63,736 nt of DNA from an uncultured Planctomycetaceae bacterium (GTDB taxonomy: Bacteria > Planctomycetota > Planctomycetia > Gemmatales > Gemmataceae): assembly GCA_903912515.1 (NCBI GenBank), contig CAIWHS010000070.1:1-63736 (forward strand), given 5' to 3'. Below the pieces are notes generated by a model, which saw nothing but the letters and a program-made list of their open reading frames with translations, made no database searches and was not told the origin of the DNA. Within the stretch, counting starts at the first letter, position 1. The number at the start of each line of letters is the position of its first letter. Below, one piece after another: positions 3,344 to 45,352 of this stretch. The translations under genes and the position numbers were made by a program.

Positions 3344-3834
3344 TCCTTGGGGAACCGTGGGCGACCCATCAAGAGGCTACCCACACCAAATAAATGGTAG
3401 GGGCCTAAACGCCTGAGAGTAGAGCGGAGACTTCCGTTCCCTTGGAAATCTGTCCGTCGGGTTCATTCACCTCCCATTGTACTGACATCGAATTCATACC
3501 CAAATGCTTTTAGGCCCGACACTCCTGCTAAAAGTTGGCAATTAAAGCCCAACGGTCCTCCTTATCCGGCTGATCCAGTTTTAGCGGTTAGGCAGTTTGC
3601 GTCGGTTTATCTGGCCAATTGAAGGTTATTGGCAAACTTGTGAAGAGTTTCCGGCAACACGGTTGAGAGAATTCAGGCACTATAGGATTGACTGGCCAAC
3701 TATTCCGCCATAAGATTCCAACAGGTTGTGGAAGAATTTGGCAATTAGCGGCCTAGTACTGTCACAACCTCGCAAAGAGGATGCTTTGCGTTTTTCTGAC
3801 CCAGTAACTTTTGGGTGGAAGTGGGGAGGGGTTC

Positions 3835-4614
3835 ATGCTGGTCGAGGAACGACGGCAAAAACTCAGGGATTTGATTTGCACGCATGGTTTTGCGTCATTG
3901 CAAGACTTGGCGCGCAAAATCGATGTTTCCGAATCCACAATTCGCCGTGATCTCGAGCACCTCCACCAAATGGGCTACCTGCGTCGCACCCATGGTGGAG
4001 CGGTCTGGAATCAGGACAGTGCGCCCTTGCCTCCTCTGGAAGAGCGGACGGGGCGCCAGCTGGAAGAAAAGCGCTGGATTGGCGAACTGGCCGCCCAACT
4101 AGTGCAAGACGGCGACACCGTACTGCTGGACGGTGGAACCACCACCTTGGAGGTGGCAAGAAATATTTTGGGGGGCGGCAAGCGTGTGCAGGTGGTGACC
4201 AACAGCTTGCCCATCGCGCAGATGTTCGCCTCCAACCCAACTAGTAGCGACTTGGTTGTTCTGGGTGGCTATGTCTACCCGCGAACAGGAGTAGCGCTTG
4301 GAAGCAGCACCATCAGCATGATGGAAAATCTGCATGCCCATGTAGCGGTGCTGAGTGTGAGTGGAATAACGCAGGAAGGGCTTTTTAACAGCAACCTGCT
4401 TCTTGTTGAGACCGAACGAGCCATGATGCGCCTGGCCGAGCGTGTGGTGGTGGTGGCCGACCACACTAAGTTGGGCCGCAGGGCCCTGACTTGGCTTTGC
4501 AACCTGAACGACATCGACGATTTGGTGGTTGACGACCGGATCACTGATGATTCGCGCAAGTGGCTGGAAGATGCGGGAATCTGTTTGCATGTGGCGCGGC
4601 GGGCCGGGGTGTAG
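3835..4614 (+). CDS. DeoR/GlpR-family transcriptional regulator (probable BMC operon regulator)
   Basis: N-terminal HTH (RRQKLRDLICTHGFASLQDLARKIDVSESTIRRDLEHL) plus a sugar-phosphate-binding DeoR C-terminal domain. GGAGG lies upstream of the ATG at 3835. Stop is TAG at 4612-4614. Confidence 0.85.
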   Translation: MLVEERRQKLRDLICTHGFASLQDLARKIDVSESTIRRDLEHLHQMGYLRRTHGGAVWNQDSAPLPPLEERTGRQLEEKRWIGELAAQLVQDGDTVLLDGGTTTLEVARNILGGGKRVQVVTNSLPIAQMFASNPTSSDLVVLGGYVYPRTGVALGSSTISMMENLHAHVAVLSVSGITQEGLFNSNLLLVETERAMMRLAERVVVVADHTKLGRRALTWLCNLNDIDDLVVDDRITDDSRKWLEDAGICLHVARRAGV

Positions 4615-4654
4615 GCCCTTGGATTTCATTAACGGAATTGTTTTGGAGTGACAG

Positions 4655-5332
4655 ATGGAACGGAACCAAATTGAGCACTTGGTGCGCGAGGCACTGAAGA
4701 ATGTTTTGCGGCCCAGCAATGGTCCTTGCTCCGGTTCAGCATCGACCGCTGTCCCGCCCCAGCCCAGGTTATTGGTCAATGTTTCCGCTCGGCATGCCCA
4801 TGTCACTCAGGAAGACCTTGAGCGACTGTTTGGTCAAGGGCACAAGCTGACCCCTTACAAGATGCTGTATCAAGACGGATTTTTCGCAGCCGAAGAGTCG
4901 GTTACTTTTATCGGTCCCAGGCAGCGGGTGATCAACAATCTGCGCATTTTAGGCCCATGCCGCGATCATAGCCAGGTGGAGCTTTCGTTCACCGACGCGG
5001 TGCAAATGGGGCTGGACATCCCGGTTCGCAAGAGCGGGGACCATCGCGATTCACCCGGAGCCTATCTCATTGGCCCCAAGGGAATGGTGAAGCTTGATCG
5101 CGGGGTTATCCGCCACCAAAGGCATGCGCACATGTGCCAAAAAGAGGCCGATTTTTATGGGGTCAGGGATGGTGATTTCATGAAGCTGCGAGTGGTAAGT
5201 GATTGCCCCGCCATCATGGAAGAAGTGTTGGTGCGTGTGAGTCAGGGCGCGAAGCTCGAGGTTCACATCGACACCGACGAAGGAAACGCGGTGAATCTGG
5301 CGAAAGCGAAAAGCGTGGAGCTGTTCCGCTAA
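4655..5332 (+). CDS. pduL: phosphate propanoyl/acyl-transferase PduL
   Basis: Two PduL repeats with the His motifs VSARHAHV and IRHQRHAHM. An N-terminal amphipathic helix plus Pro/Ser linker resembles an encapsulation peptide. Confidence 0.9.
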   Translation: MERNQIEHLVREALKNVLRPSNGPCSGSASTAVPPQPRLLVNVSARHAHVTQEDLERLFGQGHKLTPYKMLYQDGFFAAEESVTFIGPRQRVINNLRILGPCRDHSQVELSFTDAVQMGLDIPVRKSGDHRDSPGAYLIGPKGMVKLDRGVIRHQRHAHMCQKEADFYGVRDGDFMKLRVVSDCPAIMEEVLVRVSQGAKLEVHIDTDEGNAVNLAKAKSVELFR

Positions 5333-5437
5333 AGCCGGTCGCGGTTTGGTTTCTGGCGCAGGATGCGCTAGATGGATCGGGTTTTCTGGTTTTGGATCGG
5401 CGGAATGTTTCCGGGCGGTCCGGGCAAACGGAGGTGA

Positions 5438-5728
5438 ATGATGTCAGCGAGCTTGGAAGCCTTGGGAATGATCGAAACCCGGGGATTAACGGCGCTGGTT
5501 GAAGCCAGTGACGCGATGTTGAAATCAGCCAATGTCTCCCTCTTGGGGTGGACAAAGATTGGCAGCGGCCTTGTCACCGCAATGGTGTCAGGCGATGTCG
5601 CCGCGGTGAAGGCCGCGGTTGATGCCGGCGCAGCCGCCGCCTCGCGCGTGGGCGAAGTGGTAGGAATCCAGGTGATTCCCCGCCCCCATGGCGACCTCAA
5701 GGACGTCCTGCCCAAGATGGGCAAGTGA
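5438..5728 (+). CDS. BMC-H shell protein (single Pfam00936-type domain, PduA/EutM-like)
   Basis: [27 protein letters not shown]...[23 protein letters not shown]...VIPRPH is the canonical BMC hexamer sequence. Confidence 0.92.
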
Positions 5729-5740
5729 GGTCCAACCACC

Positions 5741-6058
5741 ATGGCAAAACAACCAGAGACTAGGAGTGAACCAATGACTGTGAACAAGTCTGAAGCCTTG
5801 GGAATCGTTGAAACCAAGGGAATGATTTCCGCCATCGCCGCGACCGATGCCATGTGCAAAGCCGCGAATGTGGCTTATGCGGGCCAGGTGCAGATTGGCA
5901 ACGCCTTCATCGCCACATTCGTGCGTGGTGATGTAGGCAGCGTGCGAGCCGCTGTGGACGCGGGTGGCAAGGCCGCCAGCGAACATGGCGAACTGGTTAG
6001 CGCCCATGTGATTCCCAGGCCCGATGCGCAGGTCTTGGAATGTTTCTTGGGTCGCTAA
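5741..6058 (+). CDS. BMC-H shell protein, second paralog with about 20-aa N-terminal extension
   Basis: EALGIVETKGMISAIAATDAMCKAANV...FIATFVRGDVGSVRAAVDAG...HVIPRP. Confidence 0.9.
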   Translation: MAKQPETRSEPMTVNKSEALGIVETKGMISAIAATDAMCKAANVAYAGQVQIGNAFIATFVRGDVGSVRAAVDAGGKAASEHGELVSAHVIPRPDAQVLECFLGR

Positions 6059-6180
6059 GCCCGGTGAACTAATCACCCGATCCGCCAACCGGGTGGGAAA
6101 GACTCCCGCCCGGCCGCGGAACGCGGCTCCGACAACCGAAGGATTCGTCTTTTTTCACGGCACACCGAGAAGATCAAGCC

Positions 6181-7356
6181 ATGAAAATTTTGGTCGCCAA
6201 TCTGGGCAGCACCAGCTTTAAATATCGCCTGTTCAACATGGCGGATGAAAGCCTCCTGGCCCGTGGCGGTTTTGAGCGCATAGGAACCGACAGCACACCT
6301 TGGTTTGTCGAGGTGAATGGCAAGCGGGAAGAAGGCAGCCTGACTGCCCCTGACCATGCTGCAGCGGTTGGCGCTTGCCTGGAACAACTGGCCAAGCATG
6401 GCTGCCTGAAGCAGGCTGCAGACCTTGGTGCAATTGGCTTCAAATCAGTCCATGCCAAGGGCGTGACCGGTGCTCAACTGGTAACCCCCCGAGTTCTTGA
6501 GGCCATGGAGGCTTACAACGAGGTAGCCCCGGCCCACAACCCTCCATATGTTGCGGCGATGCGCCTTCTGGCGAAAGAATTCCCCCGCATTCCCTTGGTT
6601 GCGGCCTTTGAAACAGGCTTTCACCAAACCATTCCGCCGGGCAATTCGCTGTACGCTGTTCCCCTGGAATGGGCGGAAAACCATGGCGTCAGAAAATGGG
6701 GTTTCCATGGTGCCAGTCATCGTTTCATCGCGGGCCGCGCGGCCCAATTACTGAACAAAACCAATGCGAAAATTATTTCCTGTCATTTGGGAGGCTCGAA
6801 CTCGCTGTGCGCCATTGATTCAGGCAAGTCGATAGCCTGCACCCTGGGAATGAGCCCGCAAAGCGGCCTGCCCCACAACAACCGTGTGGGCGATTTCGAT
6901 GTTTTCGCCCTTCCGGTCCTATTGCGGGAAACGGGCAAAACCCTTGAGCAACTGCTTGACCAATTGGCCAATCATTCAGGCTTGGAAGGTTTGTGCGGCC
7001 TGCGCGACATGCGCGACATCGAGAAAGCCGCCAAGGATGGTGACCACCGCGCCCAAACCGCGCTGGATGTGTTCTTCAATTCGATCCAAATGTACATCGG
7101 TGGCTACATCGCCCTGCTGGGCGGCGTGGACGGCATCTTTTTCACCGGCGGCATTGGCGAAAACTCGTCACTGCTGCGGGAAAAAGTAATCGCAGGCTTG
7201 GGATGGATGGGCATTGATCTCGATCCCGCTGCCAACGCCACAGCCAAAGGCGAACAAGCATTGCACAAAGTGGGCAGCCGAGCCCAGGTGTGGATATTGC
7301 CCACCAACGAAGAAATTGTGGTGGCCAGGCAATCACGCGATTTGCTGGCCGGGTGA
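6181..7356 (+). CDS. ackA: acetate (acyl) kinase
   Basis: MKILVANLGSTSFKY..., HNP, FHGASH, CHLGGS.S, FTGGIGENS and NEE..VA are ASKHA acetate kinase motifs along the full length. Confidence 0.92.
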   Translation: MKILVANLGSTSFKYRLFNMADESLLARGGFERIGTDSTPWFVEVNGKREEGSLTAPDHAAAVGACLEQLAKHGCLKQAADLGAIGFKSVHAKGVTGAQLVTPRVLEAMEAYNEVAPAHNPPYVAAMRLLAKEFPRIPLVAAFETGFHQTIPPGNSLYAVPLEWAENHGVRKWGFHGASHRFIAGRAAQLLNKTNAKIISCHLGGSNSLCAIDSGKSIACTLGMSPQSGLPHNNRVGDFDVFALPVLLRETGKTLEQLLDQLANHSGLEGLCGLRDMRDIEKAAKDGDHRAQTALDVFFNSIQMYIGGYIALLGGVDGIFFTGGIGENSSLLREKVIAGLGWMGIDLDPAANATAKGEQALHKVGSRAQVWILPTNEEIVVARQSRDLLAG

Positions 7357-7387
7357 GTTTGTTTTTTTATTCAGGGAGGAGAGAGAC

Positions 7388-7630
7388 ATGAAGCTGCGCA
7401 TCACTTACTGCACATCTTGAGGCTACCGCAACTTCGCCGCCAGTTTGGCGGGCGCCGTGCGGAACACCTACCCTCAGGTGGAAGTGGAACTCAAGACAGG
7501 ATCGGGTGGCATTTTCGATGTGGAAGCCAACGACGACCTGATCTTCTCGAAGGACGACGAGCACCGTTTTCCGGCTAACCGGGAAATTTTGGAAAAGCTC
7601 GATGCCCTGCTGAAAAAACAGTCCGGCTGA
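7388..7630 (+). CDS. SelW/Rdx-family (SelW-like) protein, probable selenoprotein with in-frame UGA (Sec) at 7418-7420
   Basis: GGGAGG Shine-Dalgarno, then ATG at 7388. Translation is MKLRITYCTS-[TGA]-GYRNFAASLAGAVRNTYPQVEVELKTGSGGIFDVEANDDLIFSKDDEHRFPANREILEKLDALLKKQSG. The two ORF-track pieces (tail of 7214-7420 and 7445-7630) are in the same frame. YC..UGY plus GSGG.F.V...d.li.sk....FP matches the Rdx fold signature (human SelW has YCGAUGY). Confidence 0.75.
7435..7454 (+). promoter_or_regulatory. candidate bacterial SECIS hairpin downstream of the UGA
   Basis: CGCCGCC-AGUUU-GGCGG(G)CG forms a 7-bp GC-rich stem with one bulged G and a GU-containing apical loop. The stem starts 15 nt after the UGA, and the loop G is about 25 nt from the U of UGA. 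Confidence 0.5.
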
Positions 7631-7675
7631 GTCGGACGGCTTGTAAACATTTGGCACTGGCAAGGGGTTCGGCCC

Positions 7676-7996
7676 ATGTTCCTAGCGCGTGTGACCGGAA
7701 GCGTTGTCGCGACCCAGAAAGCCCAGTCCATGACCGGGCACAAGCTGCTGGTGGTCGAACCCCTGCGTGTCGATCCGCAGGATCGCACCAAACTGACCGG
7801 CACAGGCCGCAGCTTTGTTGCGGTGGACGCCTTGGGGGCGGGCATCAACCAAATGGTGCTGATCGTTCAGGGATCGAGCGCCCGCCTCATGCCTGCCACC
7901 GAGAAATTGCCCATCGATACGGCCATCATCGGCATCGTTGACACCGTGCAGGTGGGCGACAAGACAGTCTTTGACGCCCGGCTGGAGTCGGCATAA
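7676..7996 (+). CDS. BMC-P vertex protein (EutN/CcmL family), copy 1
   Basis: MFLARVTGSVVATQK...KLLVV.P......FVAVDALGAG....VLIVQGSSAR.......P.D.AIIGIVD is the typical EutN/CcmL pentamer pattern. Confidence 0.9.
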   Translation: MFLARVTGSVVATQKAQSMTGHKLLVVEPLRVDPQDRTKLTGTGRSFVAVDALGAGINQMVLIVQGSSARLMPATEKLPIDTAIIGIVDTVQVGDKTVFDARLESA

Positions 7997-8115
7997 CCGT
8001 CAAAGGCTGACATTGTGAGTTTGGGAAAATCGGGAAAGAGGCATAGACGAAGGTGCCTTTACCCATTCCGTGGGTCATAGTTTGGCAGCTTCCTAAAAAC
8101 GAAGGAAAAGCACTG

Positions 8116-9606
8116 ATGTCTTCCATCAAATCGATACCCTCCGACCAGATTGTCCGCGGCGTGGTGGAGCAAGTTCTCCGCCAAATCCAATCGGGCAAGC
8201 TTCCAGCATCCAATGGATCGATCCAGGCTGCCATCAAGGCTGCACTGCCTGCAGCCTCACAGGACTCCCCTAAGTCAGCGGGTTCGGGTGACGGTGTTTA
8301 CGCCACGGCCGATGAGGCTGTCGCTGGAGCATCCCGTGCCCTGGTTGCTTTTTCAAAGGTAGGCTTACCCGAGCGCAAGAAGGTGATCGACTGCGTGCGA
8401 GCCATCTGCCGCGATCAGGCCGAGAGCTTGGGGCGTGAGGAATTTGAGGAAACCAAAATCGGGCGGCTAGAGCACAAGATCGACAAGCTGCGATTAGTTG
8501 CTGATCGCATTCCAGGTACCGAGTGGCTGAAGACGGATGCTTACAGTGGCCAATTTGGCATAGCTCTTGAGGAGTATGGCCCTTTTGGCGTGATTGGTGC
8601 TATTACCCCCGTCACTCACTCTTTCCCCACACTGGCTTGCAACGCCATCAATATGCTGGCCGGTGGCAACACTGTGGTTTTCAATGCCCATCCATCTGGT
8701 GCCAGGATTGCCGCCAAGGGTGTTCGCCTTCTCAACCGCGCCTTCCAGCAGGCGATCGGAATCACAGATCTTTTGACCATCATTGAAAACCCGACTATTG
8801 AAAGTGCGCAGGCCATTTTTGATCACCGCGATGTGAAGCTGATCTGTGTGACCGGCGGCCCAGCCTTGGCTCGCGCTGCCTTGCGAAGCCCGAAGCGGGC
8901 GGTAGTGGCCGGCCCTGGAAACCCACCCGTTGTGGTGGATTCGACGGCTGATCTTTCCAATGCGGCAGCATGCATCATCGCCGGTGCAGCCTACGACAAC
9001 AACTTGCTGTGCATTGGTGAGAAGGAAGTCTTCGCCACCAACGACATTTTTGATGAGTTGCTTGACTGGATGACCAAGCATGGCGCAGTTCGTCTGGACA
9101 AAGGCCAGGTCGACCGCCTGACGGCTGTGGCCTTCAAGACTGGCGAGAACGGCAAACTACTAGTGAACAAGGATCTTATCGGTCAGGATGCGGCCGTTCT
9201 GGCCCGACATGCCGGCCTTGAAATCCCAGCGGGCACCCAGCTTATTTTCGCCGAAACGGACGAATCGAACCCTTTTGTTTCTCATGAGCAAATGATGCCC
9301 TTCGTGCCCTTTGTGCGCGCCCGCTGCGTGGACCATGCGATTGACATGGCCCATGAACACGAGCACGGCTACGGGCACACTGCTGTCATTCACTCCCGCA
9401 ATTTGGAAACGATCACCTGTATGGGCCGCCGCATGAACACCACCCTTTTCGTGCAAAACGGCGCGAGCGTGGCGGGCTTGGGTGCGGGTGGCGAAGGATA
9501 TGCAAGCTTCAGTATCGCCACCCCTACAGGCGAGGGAGTGACCACCCCGCTGACCTTCTGCCGTAAGCGGCGATCGAGCACTGTGGGCTCAATGCGAGTG
9601 GTTTGA
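8116..9606 (+). CDS. CoA-acylating aldehyde dehydrogenase (PduP/EutE-like)
   Basis: ALDH-superfamily sequence with catalytic Cys context DNNLLCIGEKE and a BMC operon position. The ATG at 8116 follows GAAGGAAAA. An N-terminal amphipathic helix DQIVRGVVEQVLRQI plus a Ser/Ala/Pro linker precedes the catalytic domain. Confidence 0.9.
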   Translation: MSSIKSIPSDQIVRGVVEQVLRQIQSGKLPASNGSIQAAIKAALPAASQDSPKSAGSGDGVYATADEAVAGASRALVAFSKVGLPERKKVIDCVRAICRDQAESLGREEFEETKIGRLEHKIDKLRLVADRIPGTEWLKTDAYSGQFGIALEEYGPFGVIGAITPVTHSFPTLACNAINMLAGGNTVVFNAHPSGARIAAKGVRLLNRAFQQAIGITDLLTIIENPTIESAQAIFDHRDVKLICVTGGPALARAALRSPKRAVVAGPGNPPVVVDSTADLSNAAACIIAGAAYDNNLLCIGEKEVFATNDIFDELLDWMTKHGAVRLDKGQVDRLTAVAFKTGENGKLLVNKDLIGQDAAVLARHAGLEIPAGTQLIFAETDESNPFVSHEQMMPFVPFVRARCVDHAIDMAHEHEHGYGHTAVIHSRNLETITCMGRRMNTTLFVQNGASVAGLGAGGEGYASFSIATPTGEGVTTPLTFCRKRRSSTVGSMRVV

Positions 9607-9637
9607 CAATTAGGCCTGCCGGGGGAGGATTCCAACC

Positions 9638-9895
9638 ATGCAAGTCGGCAAGGTGGTCGGCCGGGCGATCTCGACTGTGAAGCATAAAAGTTTTCAGGGA
9701 GTGAAGCTGCTTCTGGTTCAGGCCCTGGACGGCAAGGGGCAGCCCGATGGCGACCCGGTGCTGACTGTGGACACCTTGGGAGCGGGCCCGGGAATGCGGG
9801 TTTTGATCTCCAGTGACGGCAAGGGAGCCCGTGAAGTAGTGGGCTCGAAGGATTCACCGGTTCGGTGGTTGACAATCGGAGTGCTAGACGAGTGA
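9638..9895 (+). CDS. BMC-P vertex protein (EutN/CcmL family), copy 2
   Basis: MQVGKVVGRAISTVKH..F.G.KLLLVQ.LD........LTVDTLGAGPG..VLISSDG is EutN-like. GGAGG lies upstream. Confidence 0.9.
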   Translation: MQVGKVVGRAISTVKHKSFQGVKLLLVQALDGKGQPDGDPVLTVDTLGAGPGMRVLISSDGKGAREVVGSKDSPVRWLTIGVLDE

Positions 9896-10503
9896 GTGCT
9901 GGCTGTTTTCATCACCGCGGAAGGCTGTTGGCTGCCGGGCATCTCCCCAGGCGGTTGGCGGGTATCGACCGTGTGTTGGTGGACCCCAACGCGCTGATCT
10001 CGCCTTTGGTTTTGGAAATGCTGGCTAGCGCTGGAATTCCTCTGGTGCGTGAAGGCCAAGATGGGGTTGTGGGGAACACCTTGGCCGTTCGTGGCGCAAG
10101 CCCAATTGGCCATGTGCCTGATCCTCCCAAAGGCCACTTGCTTGTAGCGGCAGAAGTGGCCTACGAGGTGGTAGAGCGGGCAACTTCGGAAGCGGCTCGT
10201 GGCGGCAAATGTCCGGGCCGGGCTGAGATAAAAAGTTGGGACAACGGATCTGCGGGTTGGGGCGACTGGCTTTCAGCCGACCAGAGCAGGCGGCTGGTGC
10301 ATTTTGGGCCCAACCCCGAGTTGGTTGCCAGTGTGTGCATGCTGCGATGGGCTATCTCTGCAGCATCGGTCCAATCGGTTGCCCAAGCCAGCAGGGCTTT
10401 GGCAGGTTTCGGCCCCAGGCTTTTGGCGGTGGAAATGCCCGGGCGAACGCTTTTCGAGGCGCGGCACTTGATTGGCCTAATGACAACCCAGGGAGGGGTT
10501 TGA
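9892..10503 (+). CDS. BMC-operon protein of unknown function
   Basis: Open frame between BMC-P2 and BMC-P3. A candidate GTG start at 9892 overlaps the BMC-P2 stop (GTGA). Its TGA is 1 nt before the next ATG (TGAcATG). No domain recognised. Confidence 0.6.
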   Translation: MSAGCFHHRGRLLAAGHLPRRLAGIDRVLVDPNALISPLVLEMLASAGIPLVREGQDGVVGNTLAVRGASPIGHVPDPPKGHLLVAAEVAYEVVERATSEAARGGKCPGRAEIKSWDNGSAGWGDWLSADQSRRLVHFGPNPELVASVCMLRWAISAASVQSVAQASRALAGFGPRLLAVEMPGRTLFEARHLIGLMTTQGGV

Positions 10504-10504
10504 C

Positions 10505-10798
10505 ATGCGGGTGGGAAGTGTGATTGGGAATGTGACACTTAGCCGGGTGGTACCTGAACTGGTAGGCGTTCGCTGGCTGGTGGTTGGCCCGCTTGATCTG
10601 AAGGCTGTGGAAAAATACTAGTTGGATCGCGAAACGGAATCTACGGGCGAGGATTTGATCATTGCAGACGGTGTGGGCGCAGGGATTGGACAAGTAGTCG
10701 GGTTCAGTGAAGGTGGCGAAGCAGCCATGCCTTACATACCCGCCAAGGTGCCAGTTGACGCTTATGCGGGCCTGCTGATTGACAGTTTAGACGGTTGA
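10505..10798 (+). pseudogene. BMC-P vertex protein (EutN/CcmL family), copy 3, interrupted by an in-frame TAG at 10619-10621 (nonsense allele, readthrough or sequence error)
   Basis: Hand translation gives MRVGSVIGNVTLSRVVPELVGVRWLVVGPLDLKAVEKY-[TAG]-LDRETESTGEDLIIADGVGAGIGQVVGFSEGGEAAMPYIPAKVPVDAYAGLLIDSLDG-TGA. Both halves (38 and 58 codons) are EutN-like and in the same frame. Each half falls below the ORF-track length cutoff. Confidence 0.7.
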
Positions 10799-10874
10799 CG
10801 GTCAACCGGGCGGAAGGATCACGGTTTTGTTTTTGTTTTTTGAATGGAACGGACACCAACAAGGAGTGGCAGCA

Positions 10875-11765
10875 ATGGCTGGACATGGCAACAAAAGCGA
10901 GTACGAGTTGAAAGAACTGATCTGCGAGATTGGCCGTCGGGTGTACGCCAAGGGCTTCGCTGCCGCCAACGATGGCAACATCACCATCAGGCTCAACGAG
11001 CGCGAGTTCCTTTGCACCCCCACCATGGTTTCCAAGGGTTACATGAAGCCCGAGGACATCTGCAAGGTTGACAGCAAAGGCGTGCAGCTTGCCGGCAAGC
11101 GCAAGCGAACCAGCGAGGTTCTGTTGCACCTTTCTATCTACAACCAACGACCCGACATCAACGCTGTGGTCCACTGCCATCCCCCGCATGCGACTGCCTT
11201 TGCGGTGGCACACGAACCCATTCCCAAATGTGTCCTCCCTGAGGTGGAAGTGTTTTTGGGTGAGGTGCCCATTGCGGTTTACGAGACACCGGGTGCCCAA
11301 GCGTTTGCGGATACCGTTGCACCGTATGCCAAGGATTCCAATACCATTCTCCTAGCCAACCACGGCACGATCACCTTCGGGCCCGACTTGGAGAACGCGT
11401 ATTTCAATACCGAGATCATCGATTCGTATTGCCGCATCCTGATCCTTTCCCGCCAACTGGGCCGGGTGAACTATTTCTCCGAGCAGCAAACTCGCGAACT
11501 GCTAGCCCTGAAGAAAAAGCTGGGCTACGACGATGTTCGGTTCCGTTACCCGGAATCGCCCATGTGCGGCGAATCGAGCTTCGACGAGAAATTCTCGAAG
11601 TTCCAGCCCAGGCAGTACGCTTTCCGCAACGATACCGCGACCGGTATCGGGCCCGATGATGTTGTGGGCCACGGCGTGGCCCCCTCCCACACCGAGGATG
11701 CGGCATTTGACACTTTGGTGCGTACTATCACCGACCAAGTGATGCGAAACCTGCAGTCGGCCTAA
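10875..11765 (+). CDS. class II aldolase (L-fuculose-/L-rhamnulose-1-phosphate aldolase family) with C-terminal extension
   Basis: AANDGNITIR, the metal-binding VVHCHPPHATAF and LLANHG match class II aldolase/adducin-domain proteins. AAGGAG precedes the ATG at 10875. An extension of roughly 90 aa ends in the amphipathic helix FDTLVRTITDQVMRNL. Confidence 0.9.
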   Translation: MAGHGNKSEYELKELICEIGRRVYAKGFAAANDGNITIRLNEREFLCTPTMVSKGYMKPEDICKVDSKGVQLAGKRKRTSEVLLHLSIYNQRPDINAVVHCHPPHATAFAVAHEPIPKCVLPEVEVFLGEVPIAVYETPGAQAFADTVAPYAKDSNTILLANHGTITFGPDLENAYFNTEIIDSYCRILILSRQLGRVNYFSEQQTRELLALKKKLGYDDVRFRYPESPMCGESSFDEKFSKFQPRQYAFRNDTATGIGPDDVVGHGVAPSHTEDAAFDTLVRTITDQVMRNLQSA

Positions 11766-11924
11766 TTGGTGAAGGTTTTTCCGGGATTCGGGATAAGCCA
11801 ATCAACCACAGAGTGTAGGTATTCCGATAAATGGGATAAGTGGCAATATTAAGACAGGGCCATCCTATTTCAAGATTGGCAACACTCTGACCAATCGACC
11901 GACGGGATTCAACGCAGGAGCCCC

Positions 11925-12239
11925 ATGTTCAATTACAAAAAAGACAAGGCGGGCTTTTACGCCACCATCGTTTTGGCCACTCTGGCGACGGCGATAGTGG
12001 CAGCCTCCTTGGTTTTGTTTTTCATGGGAATTTCCCAAGGGCAATGGGATTATTACAACCTGCCTATTCGCTTCATTTTGGGATTTGGCTGGTTATTGCT
12101 GGTGGCGACTGTTCTCACCCGGGTCGGCATCTTCCGCATGCAGATGCTGAAGAAGCGTCAAGCTAACGGGCTAAAGAACCAGCATGGCGAACTGGAAGAT
12201 ACCAGCCCTCATGGCCAGTCCGCTGCCCCCCATCAGTGA
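11925..12239 (+). CDS. hypothetical small membrane protein
   Basis: 104-aa ORF with two clear TM helices (FYATIVLATLATAIVAASLVLFF, FILGFGWLLLVATVLT). No family recognised. Confidence 0.5.
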   Translation: MFNYKKDKAGFYATIVLATLATAIVAASLVLFFMGISQGQWDYYNLPIRFILGFGWLLLVATVLTRVGIFRMQMLKKRQANGLKNQHGELEDTSPHGQSAAPHQ

Positions 12240-12302
12240 AGCTGAAGGACTTTGGTATTACGGTTTGACATGGTTTTGCAAAGCAACAAGGAACAGACCA
12301 TC

Positions 12303-13349
12303 ATGAAGGTAAGCGTGGTTGGTGGCGGTGGCTTGGTTGGCAGCATGGCAGCGTTTGCCCTGCATTTGGGCAAAGTGGCAACCGACATTGCCATTGTGGA
12401 TGCCAACGAGCAAGTTGGCCAAGGCGTGGCCCTGGACATTCTGCAAGGCACCAGCTTGGTTGCGGACCAGCGGGTTATTTCAGGCCCCATCCAAGAGCAC
12501 ATCCCGTCGAGTGATGTGGTGGTGGTCACCGCCGGTTTGCGTCGCAAACCGGATGAATCCAGGCTTGATCTAATCAACCGCAATACCGACCTCTTTCTTG
12601 ATCTTCTGGGCAAAATTCGTCAAGCAGGCTGGAAGCCCGGAGCCACCTTGGTGGTGGTTAGCAACCCGGTGGACATTCTCACCCACCTGGCTGTTGAGCG
12701 CTCGGGTCTTGACTGGCGCCATGTGATCGGCCTTGGAACCCAGCTCGACACCGCCCGTCTTAACAGCCACTTGGCCCGCACTTTGAAGGTGCCGGCAACC
12801 CAGGTGAAGGCGGTTCTTCTGGGCGAGCATGGCGACTCCATGGTTCCCATTTGGTCGAGCGCCACTGTGGCAGGCATGCCCCTTGAAAAATGGCCAGGCT
12901 ACACCGCGCAGATAGAACGGGAAATCTTTGAGGAAACCAAAACTGCCGGCGCAACCATGATCAAGCTGAAGGGTGGTTCAGGCTTTGCGGTGGGAGTTTC
13001 CATTCGCGAAGTGGTTGAATCGATCTTGCTAGACTCCCGCAAGGTGCTTCCAGTCAGCACCATGCAGCAGGGCCTCTATGGTTTGCGGGATGTTTGCCTG
13101 AGCGTGCCAACCGTGGTTGGGGCCCAAGGCGTGATGGCGCAGATTGAAATCGCTCTTGCTCCGCGTGAGCAGGTTGCCCTGCACAACTCAGCCCGCGTGT
13201 TGCGTGAGACGCTGGATGCTGTCAAAAACCGTCTGGCCTCGGGTGGCTCGCCTGCTGCTGCTTCTGCGGCAGCGGCGCCTCAAGCCGCTGCCGCTCCTTA
13301 CTCAACAGGGCCCCGGGCAATACCCCGGGCAGCCTGGCAGTCCCGCTGA
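12303..13349 (+). CDS. NAD-dependent L-lactate/malate dehydrogenase family protein
   Basis: MKVSVVGGGGLVGS Rossmann motif, TAGLRRKPDESRLDL, VVSNPVD, LGEHGDSMVPIWS. The C-terminus carries an Ala/Pro-rich tail. Substrate is ambiguous (see findings). Confidence 0.88.
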   Translation: MKVSVVGGGGLVGSMAAFALHLGKVATDIAIVDANEQVGQGVALDILQGTSLVADQRVISGPIQEHIPSSDVVVVTAGLRRKPDESRLDLINRNTDLFLDLLGKIRQAGWKPGATLVVVSNPVDILTHLAVERSGLDWRHVIGLGTQLDTARLNSHLARTLKVPATQVKAVLLGEHGDSMVPIWSSATVAGMPLEKWPGYTAQIEREIFEETKTAGATMIKLKGGSGFAVGVSIREVVESILLDSRKVLPVSTMQQGLYGLRDVCLSVPTVVGAQGVMAQIEIALAPREQVALHNSARVLRETLDAVKNRLASGGSPAAASAAAAPQAAAAPYSTGPRAIPRAAWQSR

Positions 13350-13393
13350 CCCGTCTGATTTTCATACCTTAAAAGCATCAAGGAGGATGTGAC

Positions 13394-13660
13394 ATGGACG
13401 AAGTTGAAGCGATTGCAAAGACTGTGAACCTTCCAGCCGATTTCGAGATCCGGCTCCCTGGCGGTTTGTCGATTTGCCGCCTGGCTGAAAACCAGTTTCA
13501 TGTGGAATACGAGGTAGAACAGGACGGCGACACCGAACTTCGGGAAAAGTCTTTCAAAACCGCCGAGGCGGCGGCCAAATTCTTTATTGAACGACGCCAC
13601 GCCCAAAAGCTGGGTGGCGACTACGCTGAAATGGAAGACGAAGAGAGCGACGACGAATAA
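13394..13660 (+). CDS. hypothetical acidic protein
   Basis: 88-aa ORF preceded by AAGGAGG, with an acidic C-terminal tail (EMEDEESDDE). No family recognised. Confidence 0.5.
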   Translation: MDEVEAIAKTVNLPADFEIRLPGGLSICRLAENQFHVEYEVEQDGDTELREKSFKTAEAAAKFFIERRHAQKLGGDYAEMEDEESDDE

Positions 13661-13734
13661 CGACCCGAAAACCCTCCGTTCCACAGTAGCGGCGCGTAAG
13701 AACCCCATAAGCCAACCAGGAATCGGCAATCACC

Positions 13735-15036
13735 ATGAACAGAATGAAATCGCTGGACGAGAAACTGAAACGCATCCATGCGAACCCAACCACCTGCGGT
13801 GATTTCATCCTTGCAGATGCCAAGGATGCCGACATGGCATTGGCTATTGGTGCCACAGGACGCACGACCGAGAAATGGCCCGATGGCTCGCCCAGGTTTC
13901 GCACCTTGGCCGAGTACCGCCAGATTATCGGGCAGATAGTCGAGCAGGGCCTGGTTGACATCATGTTGATGTCGGCCAGCACCTCAGAAGATTTGACCAT
14001 TCAGAAACGTATCTTCGACAATAGCGCTGTTACTCCGGCCTGCCGGGCAAACGACACCACCGACATTCATGTTTTTCGCGGCGGAAAGTCGCCTGGCCAC
14101 CCCTCCCTACCCTTCCGCACCGCCACCATAGACCACATCCAGTGTGGCAAGCTGCATTGCTCCCCTAGTGAGCGACAACTCGGAGCCAACCTGGGCCTTT
14201 ACAGCATCACTTACACCAACGACCCGGTGCGTGACCGCGAAGCCCTGCTAGCGTATAACGCCTTCCGATTGGAGGCCGAAGAAAAAGGCTTCCGCCATTT
14301 TTTGGAAGTGTTCGACCCCAATGTTGAAGCCATGGTGGCCCCCGAACATTTAGGCGGATTCATCAATGATGCCATCGTTCGCACTCTGGGCGGCGTGACC
14401 CGTTCAGGACGGCCCGACTTTTTAAAGATTGTCTACCACGGCCCCCGGGCCATGGAAGAACTGGTTGCATACGATCCTCACTTGGTAGTTGGCATTTTGG
14501 GTGGCTCAGCAGGCACAACTTACGATGCGTTCAAGCTGCTGGCAGAGGCTAAAAAGTACGGTGGCCGCGTGGCGCTATTCGGCCGCAAAATAAACCAAGC
14601 CGAAAACCAACTCGCATTTATCCATTTTCTGCGTTTGATCGCGGATGGCGAGATTGGGCCCGAAGAGGCAGTCAAGGCATACCATGGCGTTCTTCAGGCT
14701 CTGGGAGTCACCCCTAACCGCAGCCTGGCAGACGACATGGTGCTGCAGACCGGCGTGATGAGTTATGGTGGCACCAAGACCACCTCCTTGCCGCCCGCAC
14801 AGGCTAAGCCAGGGGTAACCTCTAGCCCCGCGGTTGCACCTTATTCCAAACCGGTTACGTCAACACCCGTGGCTATTGCCGCCAAATCTGTCAGCGCCAA
14901 CAACCCGGTGAAGCCCGCCCAACCTTTGCCTTCCAAGGTTGCTGTGCCAGCCAGCTCCCAGCCCGATTTCTCAAAAATGACCTCGGCCGAAAAGGTCGCA
15001 TGGCAACGGGCGCGCTGGAACCGAATTCTGGGGTAA
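13735..15036 (+). CDS. hypothetical protein, possibly an aldolase-like TIM-barrel fold, with Pro/Ala/Ser-rich C-terminal tail
   Basis: 433-aa ORF. Alternating strand/helix-like pattern (FILADAKDADMA, IMLMSAST, FLEVFDPN, LKIVYHG, GILGGSAG, ALFGRKIN) is reminiscent of DeoC/LacD-like barrels. The fold call is a guess only. Confidence 0.5.
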   Translation: MNRMKSLDEKLKRIHANPTTCGDFILADAKDADMALAIGATGRTTEKWPDGSPRFRTLAEYRQIIGQIVEQGLVDIMLMSASTSEDLTIQKRIFDNSAVTPACRANDTTDIHVFRGGKSPGHPSLPFRTATIDHIQCGKLHCSPSERQLGANLGLYSITYTNDPVRDREALLAYNAFRLEAEEKGFRHFLEVFDPNVEAMVAPEHLGGFINDAIVRTLGGVTRSGRPDFLKIVYHGPRAMEELVAYDPHLVVGILGGSAGTTYDAFKLLAEAKKYGGRVALFGRKINQAENQLAFIHFLRLIADGEIGPEEAVKAYHGVLQALGVTPNRSLADDMVLQTGVMSYGGTKTTSLPPAQAKPGVTSSPAVAPYSKPVTSTPVAIAAKSVSANNPVKPAQPLPSKVAVPASSQPDFSKMTSAEKVAWQRARWNRILG

Positions 15037-44068: not shown

Positions 44069-45352
44069 CTAGGCCCCTCTCCTGATGATATCCTTGCCCA
44101 CCCAGGGCCGGAGTGCATGAGGCACCGCAATCGAACCATCCGCCTGCTGGTGGTTTTCCACCAAGGCCACAAGGGCCCTCGCGCAGGAGACTGCGGTGCC
44201 ATTGAGCGTGTGCACAAACCGGGTACCTTTTTGCCCTGCCGATTTGTAACGAATGTTCAGCCTTCTGGCCTGAAAGTCTGTGCAATTGCTGGTGCTGGTC
44301 ACCTCACCATATCCACCCCGGCCCGGCATCCAGGCCTCAAGGTCATATTTGCGGTAGGCCGGGCCTCCCAAATCACCGGTGCAGGTGTCTATCACCCGGT
44401 AAGGCAAACCCAAATCCTGAAACACCTCTTCCTCGATACCCAAAATTTCCAAGTGCAGCGCCTCGCTCTGCTCAGGCGTGCAAAAACTGAACATCTCAAC
44501 CTTGGTGAATTGGTGCACACGGTACAAGCCCCGGGTGTCCCTCCCAGGCGCCCCTGCCTCCGTGCGGAAACAATGCGACAAGCCCACATATTTAAGGGGC
44601 AAACGCGCCGCATCCAGAATTTGGTCGCGGTGCATGCCACCCAATGTGATTTCCGCAGTGGCCACCAGGCACAGGTCCGATTGCTCAATCGTATAAACCT
44701 GACGGGTCTCGGGGTTGGGATCCCGCGGCATGAAGCCGATCCCCTCCAAAACCTCCACTTTCGCCAAATCAGGAGTGATGATCGGGGTGTAACCGCGGGC
44801 CACCAGCTTGGCCATTGCGAAATGCACCAAGGCCAACTCTAAAAGCACCGCCTCATTCTTCAAAAAATAAAACTTGGAGCCCGTGACCGATGACCCCGCC
44901 TCAAAGTCCACCAAATCAAGACTTTCCATCAAGGAGACATGATCCTTGGGGGCAAAATCAAATGCGGGAATTGTCCCCCATTGGCGAATGTCTTTGTTGC
45001 TGTCAGGGTCACCGCCAATGGGAGCTTCCGGGTGGGTGAGGTTGGGAAGTTGGCAAAGCGCCTCCCTCACCTTCACCTCCGCGTCGCGGAGTTTGGCCTC
45101 CAACCCTTGAGCTTCCTCACGCAGGGCCTTGCCTTCGCTGATCAGGGCCTGACGCCCCGTCTGGTCTTTCTCCTTGGCGATCAGCTTCGAGACCTCGTTC
45201 TGCCGCTCCTGCACCGTTTGGGTGCGCTGGGCCAAGGCCCGGCGGTGATCATCGGCCTCTACAGCCACGGCAGGATCCGCCTTCACCAGACGGTTCACGC
45301 AATTGGCCCGCACAGCCTCGAGATTTTCACGCACATATTGAATATCTAACAT
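44069..45352 (-). CDS. serS: seryl-tRNA synthetase
   Basis: N-terminal coiled coil (MLDIQYVRENLEAV...) and class II core motifs (CFRTEAG, YRVHQF.KVE, GEVTSTSNCTDFQARR, NGTA). Confidence 0.95.
   Translation of the reverse strand: MLDIQYVRENLEAVRANCVNRLVKADPAVAVEADDHRRALAQRTQTVQERQNEVSKLIAKEKDQTGRQALISEGKALREEAQGLEAKLRDAEVKVREALCQLPNLTHPEAPIGGDPDSNKDIRQWGTIPAFDFAPKDHVSLMESLDLVDFEAGSSVTGSKFYFLKNEAVLLELALVHFAMAKLVARGYTPIITPDLAKVEVLEGIGFMPRDPNPETRQVYTIEQSDLCLVATAEITLGGMHRDQILDAARLPLKYVGLSHCFRTEAGAPGRDTRGLYRVHQFTKVEMFSFCTPEQSEALHLEILGIEEEVFQDLGLPYRVIDTCTGDLGGPAYRKYDLEAWMPGRGGYGEVTSTSNCTDFQARRLNIRYKSAGQKGTRFVHTLNGTAVSCARALVALVENHQQADGSIAVPHALRPWVGKDIIRRGA

Follow-up and report, generated by a model that had tools for sequence, protein, structure and literature searches.

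Bacterial SelW-like proteins that combine a CxxU motif with a bacterial selenocysteine insertion sequence (SECIS) have been known since 2005, are covered by curated models at NCBI and outnumbered every other selenoprotein family in the Sargasso Sea data (Zhang, Fomenko and Gladyshev 2005, PMC1088965). Most of them are selenocysteine (Sec) forms; Cys homologues are few, and their scarcity points to Sec as the ancestral state (PMC1794560). The gene described here, located at positions 7388 to 7630 of a 63,736-nucleotide contig of an uncultured Planctomycetaceae bacterium (CAIWHS010000070.1; this whole stretch is referred to as the window), is a new member of that family. With other bacterial SelW-like proteins it shares a length of ~75-80 amino acids, a CxxU motif after the first strand, and a UGA codon with a bacterial SECIS behind it whose small apical loop contains a G. 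In contrast to the other homologues examined, which are not in bacterial microcompartment (BMC) operons, it lies in such an operon, carries the motif ITYCTS-U-GYR.F and ends in a slightly longer, basic C-terminus. The biochemical function of SelW and other Rdx proteins is still unclear in bacteria as well as in animals, a redox role being presumed.

The closest described operon is the PVM-type (Planctomycetes and Verrucomicrobia microcompartment) locus (Axen et al. 2014, PMC4207490; Sutter et al. 2021, PMC8217296). A DeoR regulator, a phosphotransacylase (PTAC), two BMC-H genes, acetate kinase (ack), three BMC-P genes, an aldehyde dehydrogenase (AldDH), a class II aldolase and a lactate dehydrogenase-like (LDH-like) enzyme are common to both, in the usual order. 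The locus of the window differs by two extras: ack is followed by the selenoprotein gene before the first BMC-P gene comes, and the LDH-like gene by an 88-amino acid gene; both extras are absent from most PVM loci. In the available portions of the text and supplements of the two BMC locus catalogues (PMC4207490, PMC8217296), selenoproteins and Rdx proteins are not mentioned, and no paper tying either to microcompartments was found in the literature; the PVM operon variant with SelW and the 88-amino acid protein, called hyp88, appears to be undescribed. That positions 7388-7630 hold a genuine gene of the SelW/SelT/SelH (Rdx) family, that its UGA is decoded as Sec and that it belongs to the operon is, taken jointly and leaving the role of the product aside, given a probability of roughly 0.85.

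The selenoprotein gene and its SECIS hairpin

The elements of the gene are as follows.

7374-7381, + strand: Shine-Dalgarno sequence GGGAGGAG, with GGGAGG at 7374-7379 and 8 nt from GGAGG to the ATG at 7388
7388-7630, + strand: SelW-like (Rdx family) selenoprotein gene, MKLRITYCTSUGYRNF...KKQSG, 80 amino acids plus stop, assigned by profile matches
7409-7420, + strand: CxxU redox motif Cys8-Thr9-Ser10-Sec11 (TGC ACA TCT TGA), as read in the sequence
7418-7420, + strand: in-frame UGA, the probable selenocysteine codon (TGA in 54 of 54 homologous loci, Cys in distant homologues)
7435-7454, + strand: bacterial SECIS hairpin; 5' arm 7435-7441, loop AGUUU 7442-7446, 3' arm 7447-7454 with one bulged G
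7426-7463, + strand: possible lower SECIS helix, CCGCA 7426-7430 with UGCGG 7458-7462, predicted for the window and close relatives only

From the ATG at 7388, the frame reads MKLRITYCTS, encounters the in-frame TGA at 7418-7420 and proceeds for 69 codons to the TGA stop at 7628-7630. A mechanical list of open reading frames (ORFs) contains a single entry between ack and the first BMC-P gene, a 61-amino acid ORF with a TTG start (7445-7630), while in near-identical metagenome contigs the publicly available gene calls list a 57-amino acid product starting from GTG 7457. The preliminary description of the window had reported the GGGAGG, the ATG, the decapeptide, the TGA and the lone 61-amino acid ORF, and all were found where it had placed them. 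A Shine-Dalgarno sequence stands before the upstream ATG in seven of the eight sequences inspected, L009 being the exception; an AGGAG-type Shine-Dalgarno sequence precedes the same ATG in the orthologues L010, L012, L013 and L015 as well as in the distant homologues L007 and L008. As a separate observation, single-sequence prediction for positions 7360-7388 of the window pairs a U-rich tract after the ack stop, UGUUUUUUU, with the GA-rich Shine-Dalgarno region, AGAGAGACA; such a predicted pairing could mask the ribosome-binding site of SelW.

Evidence for decoding of the UGA comes from 54 homologous loci, 25 of them embedded in BMC operons and 29 not. At the aligned codon, TGA is found in every one (25/25 and 29/29, respectively). 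The peptide patterns by which most of these loci were fetched flank the TGA on both sides and exclude the TGA itself, and the four-sequence alignment used for the metagenome scan biases the sample towards sequences with MK[LV][RD]ITYC and GSGG[IV]FD. Among 18 distinct BMC-clade sequences, the whole stretch ITYCTS-TGA-GY is invariant as amino acids, codons 5-10 (I-T-Y-C-T-S) included, and these codons vary synonymously (ATC/ATT, ACT/ACC/ACG, TAC/TAT, TGC/TGT, four Thr codons, TCT/TCC). Amino acids that are fixed while their codons vary are a hallmark of translation, here upstream of the TGA, and of purifying selection. Orthologous loci devoid of conservation across the TGA, which the preliminary description had named as evidence that would overturn its proposal, are not what was encountered; the peptide on both sides and the TGA itself are kept.

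The family assignment made in the preliminary description holds across the TGA. With the TGA read as Cys, the joined product matches the Pfam Rdx profile PF10262, against which an alignment had been suggested, with 73.2 bits (cut-off 22.6; E 2e-20), residues 3-72 covering profile positions 2-73 of 74, that is, nearly the full profile. The NCBIfam model TIGR02174 (CXXU_selWTH; cut-off 34.2) is matched with 67.4 bits; the Campylobacter equivalog NF041051 (SelTWH_Campy) gives 78.6 bits, below its cut-off of 88, so that the product is not assigned to this equivalog. The part following the TGA scores 49.3 bits on Pfam Rdx when taken alone and 73.2 bits when the 10 upstream residues are joined to it; because the score climbs from 49 to 73 bits, the ten residues before the TGA carry real family signal. 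Among solved structures, the best match is human MIEN1/C17orf37 (2LJK; E 2e-12 with the single sequence, 1.6e-16 with a profile), followed in the single-sequence search by the Rdx-fold structures 3DEX, 2FA8, 2OKA and 2OJL. The subfamily profile matches eight solved Rdx-fold structures at E-values from 1.6e-16 to 1.6e-6 (2LJK, 3DEX, 2FA8, 2OKA, 2OJL, 2OBK, 2P0G and mouse SelW, 2NPB). The 80-amino acid product would be expected from these matches to adopt a thioredoxin-like alpha/beta fold. Immediately after the N-terminal strand, C8-T-S-U11 aligns with the CxxC of 2LJK and 3DEX and with the CxxU or CxxC of homologues.

The hairpin following the UGA folds as ((((((((...)))).)))) at -10.6 kcal/mol, with position 7443 as the invariant loop G and 21 nt between the UGA and the loop. 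The bSECIS consensus model (PMC13188914) specifies a loop of 3-9 nt and a stem of 4-16 bp, a G in the first two loop positions, mostly as N1-G-[G|U]-N-N2, a distance of 16-37 nt from the UGA and a minimum free energy (MFE) of -7.5 kcal/mol or less. In all of these respects the hairpin agrees with the model, including its 5-nt loop AGUUU of the N1-G-[G|U]-N-N2 type and its stem of 7-8 bp with one bulge. From the UGA on, 40 distinct sequences align free of gaps, the hairpin being formed by columns 18-24 with 30-36 and the loop by columns 25-29. In this alignment 84.6% of the cells are paired, both sides have changed in six of the seven pairs, and there are 37 doubly changed cells. The covariation score of 0.301 compares with 0.116 ± 0.016 after shuffling and was reached in 0 of 500 shuffles; slid controls, in which the partner was shifted by 1-3 columns, stay at or below 0.144, and RNAalifold independently gives the same stem. 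The central pair illustrates the exchange, being G-C in 15 sequences, A-U in 14, U-A in 2 and U-G in 3. The loop G at column 26 is invariant, though the codon to which it belongs encodes Ser, Gly or Arg, and the loop codons AGT TTG show zero synonymous variation in the 18 BMC-clade sequences despite the six-fold degeneracy of Ser and Leu. In Rfam no family was found for the hairpin; the search at gathering thresholds returned tRNA-His only, and a permissive search of positions 7350-7700 returned a chance miRNA match only. The SECIS-like hairpin proposed earlier at 7435-7454 is thus present at that place, fits the published bacterial model and covaries.

By analogy with established bacterial Sec decoding, SelB, as a complex with GTP and Sec-tRNA(Sec), would bind the hairpin with the ribosome positioned at the UGA, and selenocysteine would be inserted. 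The Cys8/Sec11 pair of the finished protein would then cycle through a selenenylsulfide, and the product would act as a thiol/selenol oxidoreductase.

The microcompartment operon and hyp88

The locus around the gene agrees with the published description of the PVM type (PMC4207490). Its features are the following.

3811-15036, + strand: PVM-type BMC locus, by gene content
3811-4614, + strand: DeoR regulator
4655-5332, + strand: PTAC
5438-5728 and 5741-6058, + strand: two BMC-H genes
6181-7356, + strand: acetate kinase (ack; PF00871, E 1e-102), with a 31-nt spacer to SelW
7676-7996, + strand: first BMC-P (EutN/CcmL) shell gene (PF03319, E 1e-28), 45 nt past SelW
8116-9606, + strand: AldDH of the coenzyme A (CoA)-acylating type
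9638-9895, + strand: second BMC-P gene
9892-10503, + strand: hyp203
10505-10798, + strand: third BMC-P gene
10875-11765, + strand: class II aldolase
11925-12239, + strand: hyp104
12252-13349, + strand: LDH-like dehydrogenase
13394-13660, + strand: hyp88, 88 amino acids, no Pfam or NCBIfam match, amphipathic helix at the N-terminus (MDEVEAIAKTV), acidic tail
13735-15036, + strand: hyp433, end of the PVM locus, no Pfam match

On the + strand, no terminator-like sites were found in the spacers that separate SelW from ack and from the BMC-P gene, and the four consensus promoter-like sites of the scanned locus are all at least 3 kb away from SelW. Given the common orientation, the spacers of 31 and 45 nt and the absence of terminator-like sites, SelW would be co-transcribed with ack and the BMC operon. 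Proteins of the DUF1559/N-methyl type flank the PVM locus, and the best AldDH matches are to Gemmataceae-type metagenome-assembled genomes, which assigns the window to the Planctomycetota.

Three further observations concern single genes of the locus. The AldDH ORF extends upstream to GTG 8053, and all related contigs start at ATG 8116 (496 amino acids). In the third BMC-P gene there is an in-frame TAG at 10619-10621 where five near-identical contigs (L001-L004, L093) have AAG (Lys39); the TAG interrupts the shell gene in the window, possible explanations being a nonsense variant, a polymorphism in the population and an error in the sequence. hyp433, located at the end of most Gemmatales-type PVM loci, shows a weak sub-threshold likeness to class I aldolase / ADH synthase (NCBIfam E 3e-4, well short of the cut-off).

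Scanning metagenomes with the alignment of the SelW subclade yielded 47 loci. In 21 of them the gene stands between ack and BMC-P, always with ITYCTS-U-GY; the other 26 have other motifs, mostly CVxU-NY, and no BMC genes nearby. The order ack-SelW-BMC-P is kept in all 25 BMC loci, among which SelW has diverged to ~50% identity and AldDH to ~64-70%, and the operon-embedded copies form a distinct subclade characterized by the motif ITYCTS-U-GYR.F.

The second locus-specific gene, hyp88, is situated ~6 kb from SelW in the same operon. It occurs in every SelW-bearing PVM locus that covers the region, in all SelW-bearing groups and at 41-85% identity. Searches did not detect it in 39 loci that lack SelW (E 1e-4) or, at E 1e-2, in the 17 closest relatives without SelW, and in most of these 17 the distance from the LDH-like gene to hyp433 is less than 170 nt. 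Searches of Pfam and NCBIfam gave zero matches for hyp88; a single-sequence AlphaFold (AF2) model with a pLDDT of 79 predicts an alpha-beta4-alpha arrangement, for which there is no significant match in the PDB.

Role of the product and alternative readings

In line with the redox-maintenance role suggested in the preliminary description, it is tentatively proposed, at odds close to but somewhat below even, that SelW is an accessory of an aerobic, aldehyde-oxidising microcompartment. In this function it would keep a thiol reduced, perhaps together with hyp88, and the thiol in question might be the catalytic Cys of AldDH, CoA or a CoA-protein disulfide; the microcompartment operates in oxic cells, and its chemistry relies on that Cys and on the CoA thiol. 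The more specific version, in which SelW, possibly with hyp88, constitutes a dedicated selenium-dependent redox-repair module, maintaining the reduced state of the AldDH Cys or of the CoA pool inside or at the microcompartment, is unlikely. That SelW is itself encapsulated seems less likely still; its final helix, EILEKLDALLKK, has amphipathic character and exceeds that of non-BMC homologues by a few residues, yet belongs to the fold itself.

Several observations speak against the preferred reading, some concerning the role and others the decoding of the UGA. Those on the role were obtained largely from a sample of PVM loci that comprises the best 80 matches of a scan with an AldDH alignment, one genome per species; all are planctomycete, and verrucomicrobial loci are left out. 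AldDH was used for collecting the loci because the marker hyp203, with only 10 detectable homologues, had too few. Rdx genes were sought in the 80 loci by tblastn and by a six-frame hidden Markov model (HMM) search. Just three (L013, L015 and L017, the last cut at a contig edge) carry one, and therefore the PVM microcompartment does not generally need SelW. SelW is not a regular PVM component, as is also evident from the intact ack/BMC-P junctions, 65 of 71 of which have a gap of less than 200 nt. At the junctions of the SelW-lacking loci L029 (8771-9252), L056 (7619-8084) and L066 (8515-9099), there are unrelated small ORFs of 128-165 amino acids; the junction therefore seems to tolerate insertions, by which the argument from position is weakened. 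No cysteines tracking SelW beyond phylogeny were found in AldDH, Ack, PTAC, aldolase or BMC-P, and with the Rdx domain occupying residues 3-72 of 80, room for a linker plus encapsulation peptide is lacking.

From these observations it may be argued that the gene, although a real selenoprotein gene, is a passenger at a permissive junction, performing general redox work unrelated to the microcompartment. Short of an even chance, this possibility has to be taken seriously. Besides the rarity of the gene, the unrelated junction ORFs, the absence of an encapsulation peptide and the lack of co-varying Cys residues in the core enzymes, it has in its favour the homologues of ~50% identity in unrelated contexts (adjoined by ThuA, LysR and others) and a patchy distribution on the AldDH tree. 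On this neighbour-joining tree, a rough distance tree, the SelW-bearing loci form three groups in the Gemmatales-like half, with none in the Isosphaeraceae- or Planctomycetaceae-type halves. Because of the carriage by 3 of 80 and the patchy placement, the operon SelW is a lineage-restricted accessory that has been gained and/or lost more than once. The passenger explanation is countered by the constant ack-SelW-BMC-P position in 25 of 25 diverged loci, by the separate subclade of the operon copies, by their co-occurrence with hyp88 and by the absence of flanking terminator-like sites and of promoter-like sites within 3 kb.

The same sample bears on two points of the preliminary description. 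There the gene had been placed outside the described PVM model, and indeed it is absent from 77 of the 80 planctomycete PVM loci and goes unmentioned in those portions of the BMC catalogues that were available. The question whether other planctomycete BMC loci carry a homologue at this position is answered by Sec-codon (TGA) homologues at the same position in 25 loci, and in 3 of the 80 PVM species. Some labels and proteins encountered along the way deserve a remark. Several records of typical planctomycete PVM loci bear the title 'Candidatus Kuenenia' or 'Alcaligenaceae' (L013, L075, L078, L085, L086, L032), labels that look unreliable; L015 and L017 are labelled Singulisphaera, and their AldDH groups with the clade of the window. 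By eye, the junction ORFs of L029, L056 and L066 resemble DinB-like proteins and four-helix-bundle proteins of the '23S rRNA intervening sequence' type.

As to decoding, the host's Sec machinery is not seen in the sequences at hand. None of selA, selB and selD is among the 44 Pfam-scanned ORFs of the 63.7-kb window (12 smaller predicted ORFs were outside the scan) or in the fetched homologous loci, and no tRNA-Sec was detected in the window or in 32 homologous loci; the sole related gene from the scan of the window is the universal seryl-tRNA synthetase (44069-45352, minus strand). Furthermore, the single-sequence fold energy of the hairpin, at z = -1.3, is not exceptional, and for this reason the support for the hairpin is that of homologue comparison and not of thermodynamics.

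It is very improbable that the UGA is read as a standard amino acid (Trp, Cys or Gly) through near-cognate or reassigned decoding. Apart from the machinery, whose absence is seen for 63.7 kb only, such a reading could draw on public entries with Trp at the Sec position (P0007, P0022, P0026, P0038, P0069, P0070, P0072, P0079). As genuine Trp variants of the motif these entries were rejected: the DNA of P0007 (L008 117-344) has TGA, and its translation with table 11 does not give P0007. The 'CxxW' entries are misleading and are TGA translated under genetic code 4, which is shown for P0007 at least. In the window, TGA serves as an ordinary stop, for the SelW gene itself (7628-7630) and for others. 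The UGA position aligns with the second Cys of the CxxC of homologues, true Cys forms being found in the more distant family (P0039 with CGAC, P0076 with CAPC, P0080 with CVTC, as well as P0030 and P0075) and among the PDB homologues, and the conserved hairpin is of the SECIS type, its loop G being invariant; Sec remains the preferred reading of the codon.

Least probable of all is that TGA 7418 is a true stop, with a functional downstream ORF of 57-61 amino acids or a decaying pseudogene, since, even with the 57-amino acid Rdx-domain protein that gene callers give from GTG 7457 and with the Sec machinery not seen in the window, the short product would lose strand 1 and the entire redox motif, no Shine-Dalgarno-like sequence is evident by eye ahead of the internal start, the 10 codons ahead of the TGA vary synonymously and are held by purifying selection, and neither a pseudogene nor a non-coding leader is compatible with a TGA and a following hairpin that all 54 loci preserve, the hairpin with compensatory changes.

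Comparison with known systems

Public protein sets contain nothing but truncated products of the gene, and for its homologues W (code 4) mistranslations as well; most database entries are 53-57-amino acid truncations or code-4 'W' read-throughs of the same TGA. Since the UGA hides the gene from standard annotation, BMC catalogues built from called proteins will miss SelW. One PVM clade carries two extra conserved genes. A SelW subclade fixed in a defined catabolic operon (fucose/rhamnose to lactaldehyde to lactyl-CoA) offers a concrete context in which the function of the family can be put to the test, and the question is raised how thiol-dependent enzymes stay reduced in the microcompartments of oxic cells. 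Should the redox-repair module turn out to be real, a selenoprotein, and a thiol-redox component of any kind, would for the first time have been assigned to a bacterial microcompartment, and a SelW family member would have its first concrete physiological substrate.

The human SelW motif is YCGAUGY. With mammalian SelW (2NPB) and MIEN1/C17orf37 (2LJK), the bacterial product shares the Rdx fold family and the position of the motif. In contrast to the eukaryotic SECIS, which is located in the 3' untranslated region, the hairpin described here is inside the coding sequence, 21 nt past the UGA, and an operon or microcompartment setting is absent in eukaryotes.

For the putative role, the nearest parallels are offered by PduGH, PduS/PduO and EutA, maintenance and reactivation factors of metabolosome operons that act on B12 enzymes and cofactors. 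To our knowledge, a thiol/selenol oxidoreductase has not been described in such a maintenance role. There is no homology between these factors and SelW, and the role of SelW is one that we infer; the likeness lies in the arrangement. PduGH, PduS/PduO and EutA are non-core accessories, co-transcribed with the shell and core genes, that keep an encapsulated enzyme or its cofactor active, and SelW may work in a like manner.

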